52,770 bases of DNA from a bacterium (GTDB lineage Bacteria > Patescibacteriota > Microgenomatia > UBA1400 > PJMF01), in assembly GCA_017431625.1 (NCBI GenBank), contig JAFRKQ010000031.1, forward strand, positions 1 through 52,770, written 5' to 3'. Every line of letters starts with the position of its first letter. The stretch's first letter is position 1. The notes under the pieces are model-generated. The model worked only from the letters and a program-made list of their open reading frames with translations. It was not told where the DNA came from and made no database searches. Shown here piece after piece: positions 9,881 to 46,261 of this stretch. The translations under genes and the position numbers were made by a program.

Positions 9881-9922
9881 TGTTAAACATTTGTTAAACG
9901 AATGTTTAACAAATATTAAACG
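9881..9922. repeat. 11-bp-phased TGTTWAACA array (4 units)
   Basis: Units start at 9881, 9892, 9903, 9914. Confidence 0.85.
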
Positions 9923-17329: not shown

Positions 17330-17395
17330 TTTTGTGGTTTTGTCACGCGGCTGTAAATTTCTGTACTTTGTTTGTCACCAAAAACCAGGCGTTTT

Positions 17396-17437
17396 TGTTA
17401 AACGTTTGTTAAACAAATGTTAAACAGCTGTTTAACA
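17396..17437. repeat. 11-bp-phased TGTTWAACA array (4 units)
   Basis: Units at 17396, 17407, 17418, 17429; left flank matches the reverse complement of 25785-25842. Confidence 0.85.
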
Positions 17438-17445
17438 AGGCATAT

Positions 17446-25656: not shown

Positions 25657-25762
25657 TTAGATTTTACTCCTTTCAAGTATTATACCATAAATCTGGCACA
25701 TTCCTACACGCAATTTGTACCACCATTTTTGTCAATTTGTACACAAAAACTAAACACTACTT

Positions 25763-25793
25763 TGTTAAACACTTGTTAAACGTTTGTTTAACA
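25763..25793. repeat. 11-bp-phased TGTTWAACA array (3 units)
   Basis: Units at 25763, 25774, 25785. Confidence 0.85.
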
Positions 25794-31908: not shown

Positions 31909-32096
31909 ATTGGTCACAAAAGTGTTTTTTGTTCATGATAAAATGTGCACAATCTTGTTTGCGCACCAGAAAGACCATCGCAATAATTAACAACTAATGT
32001 AATCAATAATTCGATAATATTTACATCAAAAACATTAAAATATTTTCCTCAACTTGTTTTTTTAGTAATTATTATGTCTCAATTTACATCTGGTTT

Positions 32097-32147
32097 TGTT
32101 AGACATTTGTTAAACGTTTGTTAAACACTGTATACATTTTGTCTACA
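32097..32147. repeat. 11-bp-phased TGTTWAACA array
   Basis: Units at 32097 (GTTAGAC), 32108, 32119, plus related TGTATAC/TGTCTAC. Confidence 0.8.
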
Positions 32148-40643: not shown

Positions 40644-41396
40644 TCACTGGTCAATGGTCCGCCACTGGCCAGTGATTTTTTTGTAGACAAAAACCGGCAA
40701 AGCCAGTTGTCGGCGCCAACGGTGAGGCTCTTGCCACAAGCGATACAGCCACTCAAGATGAAATTTTTGCCAGAGAGTGGGAGCGCGCCGCAATCGACCA
40801 GTCAAAAAGTCAAAACTGCCGCCCACAGCCATAGCTAGACGCACTCGTGATTGGCGCAAAAGCTCACGATGATCAATTAACCACTGTTCTTGGGTGGGCG
40901 CGCCCAAAGCCACCAAGACAATTTCTGGCCGCAGATGGGCAATTAAAGCCCGAATCGCCTGCTCTTCTTGATCAGTCGGTTGGCGTGCTTGTTGGTAGCC
41001 AGGGGCATAAGCTAGATCGTAAGTCTGGCCGTTGGCGACAACACGCAAGCGTCCGTCTGGCGCTTGGTAGCGACCGCCCACGAGCAAAATTTTAAGATTT
41101 TGCTTGTGGGCAAGCGCCAAAAGCGCCAAACAAGTATCGGCTCCCGTCAGGCGCGCGGCCGCACCGCTGGCCCAGACGAGGCCCTGCCCGTCTGGGAGCA
41201 GGTAGTCGGCCGCGCGCAGGCAGTCATGAAAAGCCTCATCGCGCGCCGCCAAGACAATTTGCTCTGGATTGGGTGTCATTATGATGGTAGTCGACGCTGA
41301 TTGACGCGCCAAAAGTACGTGTAGCAACTCACCCCACTCTTGCCAGCTGACATCCACCAGTCGCAAATCCCAAAAGGCTTTAGTTTTGATTGACAT
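40644..41396 (-). CDS. WecB/TagA/CpsF family glycosyltransferase
   Basis: TPNPE, LPDGQG, RLTGAD, VALGAPTQE, VGGSFDF, RAP..Q..LEWLYRL.QEP.RWRRQ. Confidence 0.93.
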   Translation of the reverse strand: MSIKTKAFWDLRLVDVSWQEWGELLHVLLARQSASTTIIMTPNPEQIVLAARDEAFHDCLRAADYLLPDGQGLVWASGAAARLTGADTCLALLALAHKQNLKILLVGGRYQAPDGRLRVVANGQTYDLAYAPGYQQARQPTDQEEQAIRALIAHLRPEIVLVALGAPTQEQWLIDHRELLRQSRVRLAMAVGGSFDFLTGRLRRAPTLWQKFHLEWLYRLWQEPHRWRRQLALPVFVYKKITGQWRTIDQ

Positions 41397-41424
41397 AAGA
41401 GGTATTATACCACGGCCCGCAAAT

Positions 41425-41622
41425 CACTACTTTTTGGCACGAGTTTTTGCGCAAAAACACTATTTTTCCATAGGAGTTTTGTGGCAAATTCACTACTTTT
41501 TGGTAGGAGTTTTTGGAGTAAAACACTATTTTTCCATAGGAGTTTGTTGACAAAAATGCATCAAATTGTCAGCAGTTTTGATAGCAATATTCATCAAATT
41601 AGCAGGAGTTGGTCAAATTAAA
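41425..41622. repeat. 33-bp tandem array (6 units), left flank of the AAA ATPase gene
   Basis: Units at 41425, 41458, 41491, 41524 (CACTAYTTTT..YAGGAGTTT) and divergent units at 41557, 41590. Confidence 0.9.
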
Positions 41623-41624
41623 GG

Positions 41625-42944
41625 CTATTCGCCTGGAAAAGCATCATGATTTTTGAGCATAAAGGCGGCATACAAGGGCACAGCCTTGACACCATTTTCC
41701 AGACCAAAATTGCGCGCGGAGACACGGATGGAATACCTTGGCTGGTATTTTTCCCGATATACCCGTAAACTTTTGGACTGTTTATTACTTGATGCTTTGA
41801 CCTCCACGGGCACAATTTCGTCACCCCAAGTCAAGAGAAAATCTATCTCGGCGGTGTTATTGGACTTCCAGTAGTGCAAAGGCACGCCATTGGCGACCAG
41901 ATGTTGAGCGACATAGTTTTCGGCCAGAGCGCCTTTAGCCAAAAAATCCCGATCCAGCATGATGTCTTGGATTGGCACTTCAACCAGCGTGGACAACAAG
42001 CCTGTATCACTCAAATATAGCTTAAAAATATTGTTCTGTCGAAAAAACTTTAGCGGTCTTTTGACATTATTAACTAAAAAACATTGATATATCAAATTGC
42101 TAGACGCCAACCAATCAACAGCTGAGTATAATTCTCGCTTCCCTGCGCCCGCCTTTACTTGTCGATACTGAAAACGTTTGAGCTCGCTCGCCAACATTGA
42201 GGGAATTGCTTGATATACGCTTTCAATCCAGACCGACTCAGCCTTACTAGTGACAAATTTGTTCATATCTGACAAATATTGTTGAATCAAAGATTGGGAA
42301 AAGTGATTATTAAAGGCCATAATATCCTTGTCAGCAGCAATAAAATCATTTACTGCCTCTGGCATACCGCCAACCAATAAATATTCATGATACAACCGCA
42401 TTAATTTGTCATGAACCACACACTTTTGATTGGCAACAAAACAACGATGTATTTCCTCTGACCACATAGAATGATCGAGTGCCCACAAAAACTCTTCAAA
42501 ATCCAACGGATACATCTGGTAAATATCTACCTTCCCTACCGGAAATGACTTATTAAAATTCCTCAATTTGACACCAAGAAGGCTACCGGCACATAAAACC
42601 CGATACTTAGGCAACATTTCATCAAAATATTTTAATGAAATTATTGCTTGATCTGACTCTTGAATTTCATCCAAAAAAATTACCGTTTTCCCCGGAAGGA
42701 TGCGATGCTGACTTTCCAGCGAAAGTTCTTTTATTTTATCCTCAAATGACATTTTGCTCTCAAAAATATCACGAACTCTTTCTTGTTTCATCAAGTTAAA
42801 ATACACATAATCATTGAAGTACTCACGGCAATATTGCGTGAGTAAATAAGTCTTGCCCACCTGGCGCACACCAATAACCATTAGTGGTTTAGCGTTATTT
42901 TGATGTCGCCAATTTTCTAGTACTCGATAAAATTTTCTCTTCAT
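41625..42944 (-). CDS. AAA+ ATPase (AAA_14-like) with DUF4143 and C-terminal PD-(D/E)XK-like domain
   Basis: Walker A GVRQVGKT, Walker B IFLDEIQ, GGMPE, KLYLSDTGLL, EIDF...PVEVK. Confidence 0.92.
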   Translation of the reverse strand: MKRKFYRVLENWRHQNNAKPLMVIGVRQVGKTYLLTQYCREYFNDYVYFNLMKQERVRDIFESKMSFEDKIKELSLESQHRILPGKTVIFLDEIQESDQAIISLKYFDEMLPKYRVLCAGSLLGVKLRNFNKSFPVGKVDIYQMYPLDFEEFLWALDHSMWSEEIHRCFVANQKCVVHDKLMRLYHEYLLVGGMPEAVNDFIAADKDIMAFNNHFSQSLIQQYLSDMNKFVTSKAESVWIESVYQAIPSMLASELKRFQYRQVKAGAGKRELYSAVDWLASSNLIYQCFLVNNVKRPLKFFRQNNIFKLYLSDTGLLSTLVEVPIQDIMLDRDFLAKGALAENYVAQHLVANGVPLHYWKSNNTAEIDFLLTWGDEIVPVEVKASSNKQSKSLRVYREKYQPRYSIRVSARNFGLENGVKAVPLYAAFMLKNHDAFPGE

Positions 42945-42966
42945 AATCGATATTATACAACAGATT

Positions 42967-43088
42967 CACTACTTTTTGGCACGAGTTTTTTGGTGAAAAC
43001 ACTACTTTTTGGTAGGAGTTTTTTGAGTAAAACACTACTTTTCCATAGGAGTTTTTTGACAAAAATGCATCAAATTGGTAGAAATTTT
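42967..43088. repeat. 33-bp tandem array (~4 units), right flank of the AAA ATPase gene
   Basis: Units at 42967, 43000, 43033, 43066; same orientation as the left array. Confidence 0.9.
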
Positions 43089-43190
43089 AATAATGGGTGT
43101 AATTATATTGATAGATACAGGTTTTTAATATTTGTTTACTTGTAGAAAAACTCCTACTTGCAGCTGGCAAAAATGTGGTATAATAGACAA

Positions 43191-43439
43191 CGAAACCAAC
43201 AATAATTAGTTGCAGAAGGGAGAAGCTGAGAGATAAGGATGAAGTTGCCAAACCAATAAAAACATAGTTTAGATGGGAATCGAATGCAAAAAGAAGCGGG
43301 GGACGCAATTTGGCTCTTAGCAAAGCATTTGATTTAGGTAGCCTTATAGGCTTCTCTTCAGACTAGTTTTGTTGGTTTCGGGTCAGAAAGTCGCCCGTTT
43401 CTTTTTGCCTCAAACCGCTTGCAACCACAGAAAGGTGCT
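43191..43439 (+). ncRNA. Putative structured 5' leader RNA of cassette C (~250 nt)
   Basis: Arms 43191-43238 / 43342-43380 pair with G-U wobbles and start 6 nt after TATAAT (43179-43184); second pairing ~43287-43303 with 43392-43409. Confidence 0.6.
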
Positions 43440-44417
43440 ATGACGAACTGGTCACGATGGCTTATCTTTTTGGTAATGCTAACAACATATGTCTCTCCCA
43501 TCTGCATGAAAATAGGCGCGCACAGTGTCATCCACGCTGCCAAGGGCAACACATCCATGAAGCTCAAAGATGTGGCGCTGGGCAAAGTGGTACAGGTGGG
43601 AGAACTCAAATTCGTCAAGGTAGGAGATAATCAATATTTGGCCACCAATACATGTCCGCCTGGAAAAATGCTCGCTCCATTAGCTCACGATTGTGTAACG
43701 ATTCAGGAGTATGGTTGTAGCCAGCCAATTGGTACCATGCAAACTTGGAATGGTTGTACTAGCGCGAGTACACCAACAGGCACTAATTATTCCCTAGATA
43801 TCTGTCTAATGGATGAGCGCGACGGCAAGACTTATCAAGTGCGCAAATTTGCCGATGGTCATTGCTGGATGGTAACTAATTTAGCCTATGGACCTGGGTG
43901 TCAAAAAACCTCATTTAATAAAAGCAATGTAAGTCAAGTAGATGTAGTTGGCCCTGGACTTTATGGTGAATGTCGTTGGGATGAAACCAAGTCACTCAGC
44001 CTTACCTATAAATATGGCTATATGTACAATTGGCAAGCGCTGATACAAGATCCTCAAGCTTATTATGGTAATAATTATCAGCCATCAGAACCAGTACAAG
44101 GCATTTGCCCACATGGCTGGCATGTACCGCGAGGCAATACTAACAGCGAATATAAAGCTTTATATGAAGCTATTGGTCAACAAATATCATTCTTCTCTAC
44201 CGGTGGCAATTTTTTAATCGCTTTAGCCGGTCAAATTAGAGACACTAATGGGAACATTATAAGTCAAGACGCAAATGTTCAATTGTTCACTTCTACTCAG
44301 GGCAGTGGTAATAAAACCAATGCTGCTTATTATTGGTGGTTGCCACAAAGAAATTATGAATACTTAGACGATGGTAAATATTTTGGCGGTGCCCTGCGTT
44401 GTATTCAGGATTATTAA
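43440..44417 (+). CDS. Secreted FISUMP (Fib_succ_major) domain protein (cassette C)
   Basis: Shared AAKGN..FVKVGDNQY module; DERDGKTY, CWMVTNL, YGYMYNW, GICPHGWHVP, ALRCI; SD GAAAGG. Confidence 0.88.
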   Translation: MTNWSRWLIFLVMLTTYVSPICMKIGAHSVIHAAKGNTSMKLKDVALGKVVQVGELKFVKVGDNQYLATNTCPPGKMLAPLAHDCVTIQEYGCSQPIGTMQTWNGCTSASTPTGTNYSLDICLMDERDGKTYQVRKFADGHCWMVTNLAYGPGCQKTSFNKSNVSQVDVVGPGLYGECRWDETKSLSLTYKYGYMYNWQALIQDPQAYYGNNYQPSEPVQGICPHGWHVPRGNTNSEYKALYEAIGQQISFFSTGGNFLIALAGQIRDTNGNIISQDANVQLFTSTQGSGNKTNAAYYWWLPQRNYEYLDDGKYFGGALRCIQDY

Positions 44418-44488
44418 CTTTGCAGTCTAACAACTTTTCTTATTTCGTTTCGTTCGCTCCCACACTCAGGTGTAGGAGCGAAAATTTT
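44418..44488 (+). terminator. Conserved cassette 3' trailer and hairpin (copy C)
   Basis: CTTTGCAGTCT..TTTCTTATTTCGTTTCG then TTCGCTCC..GGAGCGAA hairpin. Confidence 0.75.
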
Positions 44489-44522
44489 ATTGTATAAATT
44501 TCTGTACATATTTTTTGATCAG

Positions 44523-44542
44523 TGTTTAACAAATGTTAAACG
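44523..44542. repeat. 11-bp-phased TGTTWAACA array (2 units)
   Basis: Units at 44523 and 44534 after TCAG. Confidence 0.7.
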
Positions 44543-44695
44543 TTTTTATCATATTTTAAGATACAAACAAAATACAAAAATAAAAAATTATTGATCTAAA
44601 ATCTGTACACAAAATTTACTCAATAGCCTTCATCACCCGAAAGTTTAGATAAGATTTATTTTCGGGTTCTTTACAGGTGTGGTATAATAATACAG

Positions 44696-46261
44696 ATGCC
44701 AAAAAAAGCCAAATATACGAGTGAACAGCTACGAGCCCAATACCCCATCTTCACTTATCTTAAGTATAACTGGCAATTGATTGATCATGATGACGGCCAG
44801 TGCGACCTTGAACTTACTTTTGTTTACACTCTGGGAGACAGTTATACTTTTACACATCACGTTACCTTATACCAGGTGGAGCGCCAGCATCTTGAAAGGC
44901 AGCAAGCAGGATTAATAGACAATCTCGCCTTTCATCTCGGGATTGTGGAAGGATTTTCTTACTGGAAACTAACAGCTTCACCTCAGTATGTTATCGCCGC
45001 TGGCAGCCTGAGCTCAAGACAACTGCAATACTGGCATGAATGGCTCATCAATGGCATGAGTGAATACTTTTATGTCAATCAAATTGATTTCACCGCTCCG
45101 GATTTTGTGACTATCACGAATGCTCAACCAAAGCCAGAGGAACGTGGCTGGACCACCTATCATTTGCGTCCTTCACATCAAGGCAGACACAGTCTGGTCA
45201 ATCTTGGCGGCGGTAAGGACTCGGCAGTGATGCTCGATTTACTAGGAAAAGCCGGCGAAAAATGTGGTGCTTTCATTATTGCCCCCAATTCGCCCGCCGC
45301 CGAGACTCAAGCGACCTTAGCATCCTTACCAATTCATCGTGCTCGACGAGTATTTGATCCTCAATTGCGACAACTTAACGATCAAGGATTTCTCAATGGT
45401 CACGTACCCTTTAGCGCCAGCGTCGCTTTTATCGACTTACTAGCAATGGTGGCTTACGACTATAATTACGCCCTTGTGGGCAATGAGGCTAGTGCCGATG
45501 AGGTGAGTCTCACTTGGCTGGATCAACCAATCAATCATCAATATTCAAAGAGCACAAAATTTGAACGGTCATTTTTTGAATACCGTAGAGAATATTTGAT
45601 CAATAGAGTTGAATATTTCTCATTTTTACGTATTTTTAATGAGTTTCAGATTGCGCACATTTTTTGTTCAAACCCCAAATACTGGACAGTAACCCGCTCT
45701 TGCAATCGTGGCCAAAGGCAAAATATCTGGTGTCATCAGTGTGCTAAGTGTCTTTTCGTTTATTTGCTACTAGCTGCTCACTTGCCACTAAAAACTGTGG
45801 CTAGCGACATCTTTGACCACGATCTTTTGGACGACGAGCGGCTAGCACCACTATTAGAAGAGCTTTTGGGCCTGCGTCCTAGCAAGCCACTGGAATGTGT
45901 GGGTACGCGCGAAGAGTGTCAAGTGGCTTTTTACCTTGTGTACACAAAATGTGTACAAGAGTCTCAGCCATTACCAAAATTAATTGCTCGCTATTATAGG
46001 CAGATTTTACTACTGCACAATGATTGGCTCTCTTTAGTAGACAAATTGTATACATTTTTTAACTACCAGGCTTTTAAGCAATCAGAAATGGCCCAGTTGC
46101 GCACCGTCCCAGCACCGTGCCATTTTCTTATGGCTGATTGGGCCGTACCTATCGTCTTAGCCGCACACGAACAAGTGCTGCACGACTCCTACGAAATCTT
46201 GAAAAATCTATATGAAGAACAATTACCAAAAGTCAAGAGTAAAAAGGACGGGGACGTATGA
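44696..46261 (+). CDS. murL: UDP-MurNAc-L-Ala-L-Glu epimerase MurL
   Basis: SYWK, GGGKDS, NGHVPFS, NEASA, NHQYSKS, SCN..WC..C.KC, KPLECVG; ATGA-coupled to a MurD-type ligase. Confidence 0.8.
   Translation: MPKKAKYTSEQLRAQYPIFTYLKYNWQLIDHDDGQCDLELTFVYTLGDSYTFTHHVTLYQVERQHLERQQAGLIDNLAFHLGIVEGFSYWKLTASPQYVIAAGSLSSRQLQYWHEWLINGMSEYFYVNQIDFTAPDFVTITNAQPKPEERGWTTYHLRPSHQGRHSLVNLGGGKDSAVMLDLLGKAGEKCGAFIIAPNSPAAETQATLASLPIHRARRVFDPQLRQLNDQGFLNGHVPFSASVAFIDLLAMVAYDYNYALVGNEASADEVSLTWLDQPINHQYSKSTKFERSFFEYRREYLINRVEYFSFLRIFNEFQIAHIFCSNPKYWTVTRSCNRGQRQNIWCHQCAKCLFVYLLLAAHLPLKTVASDIFDHDLLDDERLAPLLEELLGLRPSKPLECVGTREECQVAFYLVYTKCVQESQPLPKLIARYYRQILLLHNDWLSLVDKLYTFFNYQAFKQSEMAQLRTVPAPCHFLMADWAVPIVLAAHEQVLHDSYEILKNLYEEQLPKVKSKKDGDV

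Follow-up and report, generated by a model that had tools for sequence, protein, structure and literature searches.

Genes of the type PDC-S01 (COG1373, combining AAA_14 with DUF4143) are untested candidates that were found inside other defence loci (Payne et al., bioRxiv 10.1101/2024.01.29.577857), and take fourth place in abundance among prokaryotic defence candidates, with no function or ligand known (PMC12988326), as far as the accessible portions of both sources report. DUF4143 is entered among the PD-(D/E)XK families in the accessible part of PMC3424549. Leaving aside the supplements that define PDC-S01, the accessible literature on DUF4143, COG1373 and PDC-S01 makes no mention of repeats, operators or flanking duplications at these genes, and the accessible portions of PMC12988326, PMC3424549, 10.64898/2026.10.19.760177 and 10.1101/2024.01.29.577857 describe neither repeats nor operators there. 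Here, we describe a PDC-S01 gene in a 52,770-nt stretch of DNA (the window; contig JAFRKQ010000031.1, positions 1 to 52,770, assembly GCA_017431625.1) from a gut bacterium of the Patescibacteriota (Microgenomatia), where a minus-strand gene for an ATPase-nuclease stands between two arrays of a 33-bp box. The encoded protein is a full-length member of PDC-S01, for which phage defence is only a candidate role. New features of the locus and its relatives are the second array that follows the stop codon, how often this array recurs within the present lineage, solo arrays ahead of Fic genes, presence or absence of the unit at the level of single sites, and the contact between an array and the promoter of a WecG/TagA-type glycosyltransferase gene (hereafter WecG).

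Among replication initiators, P1 RepA (incC, incA) and F RepE have iterons on both sides of the initiator gene, and in restriction-modification systems, C proteins act at operators (C-boxes) at their own promoter and so restrain a mobile nuclease gene. The window locus differs from the latter in that the nuclease-bearing protein itself would read the sites, which are three to six direct boxes and not a palindrome pair. It resembles P1 RepA, F RepE and RctB of Vibrio cholerae in its fixed-spacing direct repeats over the gene's promoter and in a second set of sites, at both of which binding would be expected. At RctB, repeats control the protein's own gene and further sites act by titration or handcuffing, according to the accessible portion of PMC6090056. 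Unlike the Rep initiators, the window protein is AAA+/STAND-ORC-like with an added nuclease and lacks the Rep winged-helix pair, the spacing is 33 bp, paralogs are many, and a survey of plasmid records gave no sign of replication. Archaeal Orc1/Cdc6 reads repeated boxes through its winged helix and AAA+ domain, as the accessible part of PDB 2qby indicates. The window protein is like Orc1/Cdc6, PABY2304 and SSO1545 in that nucleotide-binding domain (NBD), lid and winged helix superpose over model residues 1-322 (Z 11.4, 16.3 and 15.4), and unlike Orc1/Cdc6 in that its boxes are direct and not inverted around an unwinding element, a nuclease is added, and its genes are multicopy. With Avs-type STAND NTPases it shares an NBD-helical domain-winged helix domain core (as in CED-4, plant NLRs and EfAvs5) fused to a nuclease, but it has no repeat-type sensor domain and comprises only 439 aa. 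To our knowledge, a private DNA array at the protein's own gene has not been described for Avs-type proteins. Finally, recombinase-less cassettes similar to cis-mobilizable elements (CIME-like), and insertion-duplication in general, offer the likeness of a single-gene unit between direct repeats, present or absent among relatives; here, in contrast, the repeat would be the cassette's own operator array and not host DNA.

Two copies of a 33-bp array around an ATPase-nuclease gene

On balance we lean towards reading this locus as a self-contained PDC-S01 cassette that regulates itself through docking arrays of its own and was inserted next to WecG. Read in the direction of transcription, such a cassette would run from the box array through a leaderless TATAAT promoter and the ATPase-nuclease gene to a second copy of the array:

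42967 to ~43100, minus strand: right array, 5' of the ATPase-nuclease gene, four units in the order a,a,b,c
42945-42966, minus strand: core promoter of the ATPase-nuclease gene, leaderless type, TATAAT at 42952-42957
41625-42944, minus strand: ATPase-nuclease gene, 439 aa, PADLOC candidate PDC-S01
41425-41622, minus strand: left array, 3' of the ATPase-nuclease gene, six 33-bp units in the order a,b,a,b,c,c

All units are direct and both arrays have the same orientation, the left one lying 2 nt from the stop codon (41625-41627). Tandem Repeats Finder (TRF) returned period-33/66 arrays at 41419-41579 (scores 133-203) and 42967-43059 (scores 119-122), and a repeat search found six 126-nt copies in register at 33-nt steps, with 85% identity between 42967-43092 and 41458-41583. 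By script, 41491-41568 and 43000-43077 differ at 3 of 78 positions. The first units of the two arrays are identical over their initial 24 nt (25 with the T at 41424/42966), and the c units are offset by +2 nt through a TG at 41557-58 and 43066-67. Together, TRF, repeat search and script confirm the original prediction in its claim of a gene bracketed by 33-bp arrays and in its unit counts, unit order, 3 of 78 differences and shared run of 24-25 nt; the right array extends to ~43100, beyond the end at 43088 first stated. The array DNA matches solely these two places in the genome of the source organism (G000, 1.14 Mb in 32 contigs). At gathering score, Rfam yielded six tRNAs in the whole window and no family at the arrays or at the leader of the neighbouring FISUMP-domain gene. 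The sole inverted pair around the unit, 41331-41349 / 43161-43179 (16 of 19 nt), has one arm within WecG and was judged to be due to chance.

The TATAAT of the ATPase gene sits 7 nt from its ATG, with the array beginning at 42967. The promoter has no -35 hexamer, and the last box occupies the -35 position, in agreement with the earlier claim that the array covers the -35 region. A two-hexamer sigma-70 scan called no promoter at the ATPase or WecG starts; both promoters were assigned by eye from the pattern TATAAT-N7-ATG together with conservation in two same-genus genomes, G001 and G003.

The protein matches AAA_14 over residues 18-153 (E 4.7e-25) and DUF4143 over residues 235-385 (E 3.1e-31) in Pfam, and PADLOC PDLC04786 (PDC-S01) over residues 1-433, in effect full length (E 4.8e-145). 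Walker A spans G25-K31 and Walker B comprises D92 and E93, and an intact PD-(D/E)XK site is formed by E342, D368, E381 and K383. In an alignment of 74 sequences, G25, G30, K31, D92, E93, E342, E366, E381 and K383 are invariant, and D368 is present in at least 90%. A model predicted from this alignment (predicted local distance difference test, pLDDT, 94.5; predicted template modelling score, pTM, 0.93) superposes over residues 1-322 on the archaeal AAA+/winged-helix ATPases 2qen (Z 16.3, root-mean-square deviation 4.6, 271 residues) and 2fna (Z 15.4) and on Orc1/Cdc6 1w5t (Z 11.4, 270 residues aligned), and matches the STAND NTPases CED-4, plant NLRs and EfAvs5 at Z 11.5-14.7. Structure matches were confined to residues 1-336, and the nuclease core was read off the full-length model, whose C-terminal part shows the alpha-beta-beta-beta-alpha-beta core of a PD-(D/E)XK nuclease. 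The winged helix lies at about residues 234-311 of the model (helices 234-281, hairpin 285-311). By the predicted model, the protein is thus an ORC/STAND-like AAA+ domain with helical lid and winged helix, joined to a PD-(D/E)XK nuclease; the Walker motifs and nuclease C-terminus of the original prediction are borne out by Pfam, the invariant residues and the model alike. A sequence search of the PDB gave as its sole match the midasin AAA segment (E 4.5e-6). Folding two copies as a homodimer (alignment A2) scored 0.00 in both runs, which weighs neither way.

We propose that the boxes would be docking sites of the encoded protein, with the winged helix reading one box, and that the direct, one-way 33-bp repeat, at about three helical turns, may allow AAA+ protomers to assemble head to tail on one face of the DNA. 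Occupancy of the last box at the -35 position would set the gene's own transcription, by repression or activation, and such self-control might keep the amount of a nuclease that could harm its own cell low and constant, while private boxes would prevent cross-talk among the 12 paralogs of the genome. Private phased arrays also offer a cheap experimental handle on PDC-S01: a defined DNA ligand, mutable spacing and a promoter readout.

Private boxes within the genome and across phyla

Six of the 12 DUF4143 genes in G000 are of the same type as the window gene (28-34% identity), and all six carry at least three boxes at exact 33-bp steps upstream, ending just before a TATAAT near the start codon. 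The array is repeated 2-40 nt after the stop codon in four of these six (the window gene, C11:4141-5490, C7:3313-4665 and C24:29516-30868), and the sequence of the box differs gene by gene. Units within one array are 61-67% identical, with cores kept and spacers diverged. The other six DUF4143 genes belong to different subfamilies; one has a perfect 23-bp array of 3.7 copies upstream, and in five a 34-47-nt piece of the upstream control region, palindromic in several cases, recurs directly after the stop codon. Altogether, in nine of the 12 the upstream control region recurs on the downstream side, so that a repeat brackets the gene; the criterion was a local-alignment score of at least 40 between 300 nt upstream and 300 nt downstream; among 236 mismatched pairs the 99th percentile was 35, and the one high outlier consisted of two adjacent genes sharing DNA. 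Neighbours of the 12 genes include a reverse transcriptase, an Abi_2 protein, a CdiA_C-domain protein and an IS200 transposase, and a period-66 array of about 11.5 copies with a CRISPR-like look (C12:115350-116113) lies 2 kb from one of the other DUF4143 genes.

TRF alone overlooks arrays in which only the cores are kept, and a core-in-phase test was used instead. A scan of the genome at periods 16-47 for three units in phase (10 or more of 14 columns) gave 25 matches, 14 of them at period 33; ten of these 14 flank the six window-type genes and four are solo. The check attached to the original prediction, that the 33-mer should not be common away from such genes, thus came out in its favour, the window's own array DNA being confined to its two places. 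Three of the four solo arrays carry boxes resembling those of two paralogs. Boxes of the C7-paralog type precede three Fic/DOC genes (C7:4857-5537, C7:9670-10530 and C28:1509-2150), of which one follows directly after the ATPase gene, one lies 6 kb off and the third belongs to a different contig; between the C28 gene and its array there is a small open reading frame (ORF). An inverted copy of the C11-paralog array lies 68 kb from the C11 gene, and an orphan 33-bp array of three units with a box unique in the genome (C11:5680-5764) has an ATPase cassette on one side and a ParE toxin module on the other.

A profile of the six paralogs recovered 79 loci at 31-46% identity to the window protein, in Bacillota, Bacteroidota, Actinomycetota, Fusobacteria, Kiritimatiellia, Elusimicrobia, a gammaproteobacterium and methanogens; one locus that lacked a stop codon was set aside, and 77 upstream regions were long enough for the array test (three cores in phase, 9 or more of 14 columns). 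Upstream arrays were found at period 32-34 in 29 of the 77 and at period 19 in one, against a downstream control in which 5/77 passed at any period and 1/77 at 32-34. The iteron-like arrays of the original prediction do belong to the gene family, standing upstream in 6/6 paralogs and 29/77 homologs from other phyla, and are rare downstream in those homologs (1/77). Distant arrays comprise three to four units, the last core ending 7-128 nt ahead of the start codon. Of 35 arrays, 21 have in their conserved core an A4(N)GT sub-motif (an A-run, then GT) directed at the gene, and two have it facing the other way.

From these sequences we infer that the boxes are probably the protein's own sites, because arrays accompany the gene type across phyla, are private to each paralog, are polar with respect to the gene, and keep their cores while the spacers decay. 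Two Prevotella genes (L083 and L113) have nearly the same box at 50% protein identity and 94% identity of the putative recognition helix. Box and protein similarity are correlated by Mantel test (rho 0.18-0.23, p 0.002-0.009); by domain, rho was 0.21 for the winged helix, 0.23 for the AAA+ part and 0.07 for the nuclease (p 0.12). The covariation of repeat and protein proposed as a check is thus present, but it is phylogenetic for the most part and not specific to the winged helix.

Alternatively, the arrays could be unrelated to the ATPase and represent phased A-tract (curved DNA) promoter modules, or the sites of another host factor, copied along with promoters. A- and T-tracts do lie in phase in every unit, and promoters here, without a -35, might need an upstream element. 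We nevertheless hold this to be very unlikely: the cores contain gene-specific parts outside the A-tracts that differ between paralogs in one cell, arrays accompany the gene family in Bacillota, Bacteroidota, Actinomycetota and methanogens, and within the genome most period-33 arrays flank the six genes (10/14) while three of the four solo arrays carry boxes like those of two paralogs.

Several findings weigh against a private, autoregulatory cassette. By the core-in-phase test, 48 of the 77 distant homologs have no upstream array, so that either some genes of the family lack arrays or the arrays have degenerated beyond detection. Two of the three Fic/DOC arrays have no adjoining ATPase gene, which indicates that arrays also serve, or remain beside, other genes. 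The two downstream copies at same-genus loci L134 and L136 of G003 are not followed by a co-directional promoter, and control of a neighbour is therefore not the general role of a downstream copy. Lastly, the Mantel covariation is mostly shared ancestry, the AAA+ part correlating as well as the winged helix.

The window gene type is rare in its class, with 3 of 300 other genomes positive at E <=1e-40, and the closest relatives of the window protein are in gut Clostridia (45-46% identity). This rarity, together with the Clostridia relatives, suggests that the six copies in G000 were probably acquired by transfer. An iteron replicon can also be envisaged, with the ORC-like protein as an initiator and array plus gene as a minimal plasmid-like replicon, now integrated. 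The ORC/Cdc6-like fold would suit such a replicon, as would the similarity of the array-gene-array arrangement to iteron replicons such as P1 and F, where control iterons lie on either side of the initiator gene, and the precedent of autoregulation, titration and handcuffing at RctB. We give this reading almost no credence, however, since homologs occur on 59 of 72,556 plasmid records, the smallest among the matches listed being 24 kb, and are annotated only as ATP-binding protein and none as a replication gene; moreover, 12 paralogs share one 1.14-Mb genome, and the nuclease domain would have no role.

Insertion beside WecG and origin of the second array

The surroundings of the cassette comprise:

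40644-41396, minus strand: WecG/TagA-type glycosyltransferase gene, the next minus-strand gene
41397-41412, minus strand: native leaderless WecG promoter, TGGTATAAT at 41404-41412, N7, ATG
43140-43156, plus strand: inverted half-unit of 17 nt, 88% complementary to 43046-43062
43419-44417, right of the cassette: FISUMP-domain gene, preceded by a 230-nt leader
41413-44695, no strand: DNA extra relative to two same-genus genomes, holding the ATPase cassette and the FISUMP gene with its 230-nt leader

In G001 and G003, WecG is directly divergent from a homolog (50% identity) of the window gene at 44696-46261 (DUF6395-type), across a gap of about 65-100 bp that holds two back-to-back leaderless promoters and no ATPase gene, FISUMP gene or array. 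This arrangement implies that about 3.3 kb (41413-44695) is extra in the window and that the WecG promoter, conserved in both array-less genomes, was there before the array came to lie against it. From comparison of these genomes, the ATPase unit looks like a cassette that entered the interval separating WecG from its divergent neighbour. The end of the left array is 12 nt away from the WecG extended -10 TGGTATAAT (41404-41412), as the original prediction had it in placing this array at the WecG promoter. On the other side, the FISUMP leader starts from a TATAAT (43179-43184, within TGGTATAAT 43176-43184), and the inverted half-unit precedes this TATAAT by 22 nt.

These contacts raise the possibility of a small regulon, in which the ATPase would be chiefly a transcription factor and the arrays operators of itself, WecG, FISUMP and, elsewhere, Fic toxins, so that the "downstream" array would belong to the next gene. 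The position of the left array next to the WecG -10, the inverted half-unit preceding the FISUMP promoter at the same distance, the C7-type boxes ahead of three Fic/DOC genes and the orphan array ahead of the ParE module all fit such a scheme. Against it, WecG in the two same-genus genomes has the same promoter and no array, the downstream copies at L134, L136 (G003) and C24b are not followed by a co-directional gene start, and the nuclease residues are invariant in the 74 sequences, which is unexpected for a plain regulator. We regard a regulon of this kind as unlikely, including its assignment of the downstream array to the next gene.

The upstream and downstream arrays are 85-95% identical, spacers included, which is far above the identity from unit to unit and implies that the duplication is young or that the arrays are kept alike by recombination. 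By this comparison, the downstream array was copied recently from the upstream one or is homogenised with it by recombination. In the cassette that we favour, the second array would have been made or kept by recombination tied to insertion of the cassette and would not be an old functional design; it may also act as a second operator, through looping, titration or influence on the WecG promoter. Flanking direct repeats of any kind occur at 4 of 77 distant loci and are commoner among relatives of the window organism (7 of 28 loci, plus 3 of 20 further loci), including a same-genus gene of the window type with a 33-bp array on both sides (L134, G003). At distant loci with flanking repeats (L116, L123, L023, L025, L032 and L049), the repeat lies outside array, promoter and gene and resembles host DNA; at L116 it spans 161 nt at 86%. 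Site-level variation was also seen after an orthologous GT2 gene (69% identity), where G003 has an array plus ATPase gene and G000 an array plus Fic gene. As a separate observation, the two flanks of each of the L134 and L136 cassettes match different G000 contigs, marking synteny breaks.

Twelve gut sequencing runs were represented by their assembled contigs, which in runs X5-X7 cover the locus in part. A 151-nt contig of depth 3 in run X6 continues from 42915-42965 into 41424-41523, that is, 1542 nt back with 25 nt shared. This joint is ambiguous between a circle junction, a tandem copy and a strain whose right array has the unit order of the left array (a,b,a). The strain variant is favoured because the depth equals that of the flanking contigs, and we count the joint only as evidence of array variation between strains. 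In X7, a ruminant-gut run, a contig carries diverged sequence of equal length in place of 43056-43155, which lies between the right array and the FISUMP promoter. Metagenome scans gave 0 matches to a two-unit array pattern and, in a protein search, 38 pattern matches with 0 confirmed, and they revealed no close strain or empty site.

These observations also bear on a self-mobilising one-gene element, in which the ATPase-nuclease would be the recombinase and the two arrays its attachment sites. Filaments formed on the arrays would pair, the nuclease would cut, and a 1.54-kb circle with one array would leave and re-enter at a cognate solo array. Consistent with this are the presence of the unit here and its absence in same-genus genomes, the youth of the upstream and downstream copies, the direct repeats flanking 9 of 12 paralogs and a share of the loci of relatives (7/28 and 3/20) and distant homologs (4/77), the solo arrays in the genome, the alternative occupants of the site after the GT2 gene, the X6 contig joining 42965 to 41424, and an intact nuclease site. 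Conversely, the X6 joint at depth 3 equals its flanks and is probably the main form, and an altered unit order in the right array explains it equally well. The distant flanking repeats, being host-like and outside the array, fit homology-driven recombination by the host with no element-encoded enzyme. In metagenome contigs and scans there was no circle, no single-array empty site at the WecG promoter and no close strain. We consider self-mobilisation improbable. Its extension to PDC-S01 genes at large, as one-gene mobile elements whose ATPase-nuclease assembles on private arrays, pairs them, cuts and hops as a small circle, appears to us doubtful indeed; if true, it would explain the abundance of the family among defence candidates and its embedding in other loci. 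An insertion sequence or transposon was rejected, there being no terminal inverted repeats and, by Pfam, no transposase domain. A staggered-cut signature, with repeat lengths in multiples of 33, was likewise discarded, the lengths being 27-174 nt without such a pattern.

The one-gene element of the original prediction survives as an insertion relative to two same-genus genomes, and not in having two arrays as its general form (downstream array in 1/77 and flanking repeat in 4/77 distant homologs). Of its proposed tests, the ~1.5-kb circular junction is represented by the single X6 joint, for which a strain variant is an equal explanation, and the single-array empty site did not materialise, with none found at WecG and G001 and G003 lacking any array. 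This gut Patescibacteria genome, with 12 paralogs, solo arrays and insertion polymorphism, provides a natural system in which such genes may prove to be selfish cassettes, regulators of neighbouring toxin and cell-surface genes, or both.

Further promoters and repeats

Leaderless-type promoters in the window lie at 41397-41412, 42945-42957 and 43176-43184. Across G000, 240 of 1002 ORFs of at least 150 aa have such a promoter (TAnAAT, 6-8 nt, start codon) ahead of a possible start, a rough count that includes spurious ORFs. The FISUMP leader (43185-43418) has a 74-79% copy on another contig (C30:3795-4038), and its conserved blocks fold into a long hairpin ending in a U-run (-63.4 kcal/mol, z -2.33), with no Rfam family at gathering score; it may be a cis-regulatory leader of a new type. 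GC-rich 32-bp tandem repeats of one family (GCCGAGCTCCGC-like) occur at C1:15651, C6:6696, C12:70998, C12:93794 and C24:113001. An 11-bp phased motif (TGTTAAACA and its complement) forms intergenic tandem runs in the window, for example at 9881-9922, 17394-17438, 25761-25793 and 32095-32127, with 13 sites there; the genome total is 54, where about 14 would be expected.

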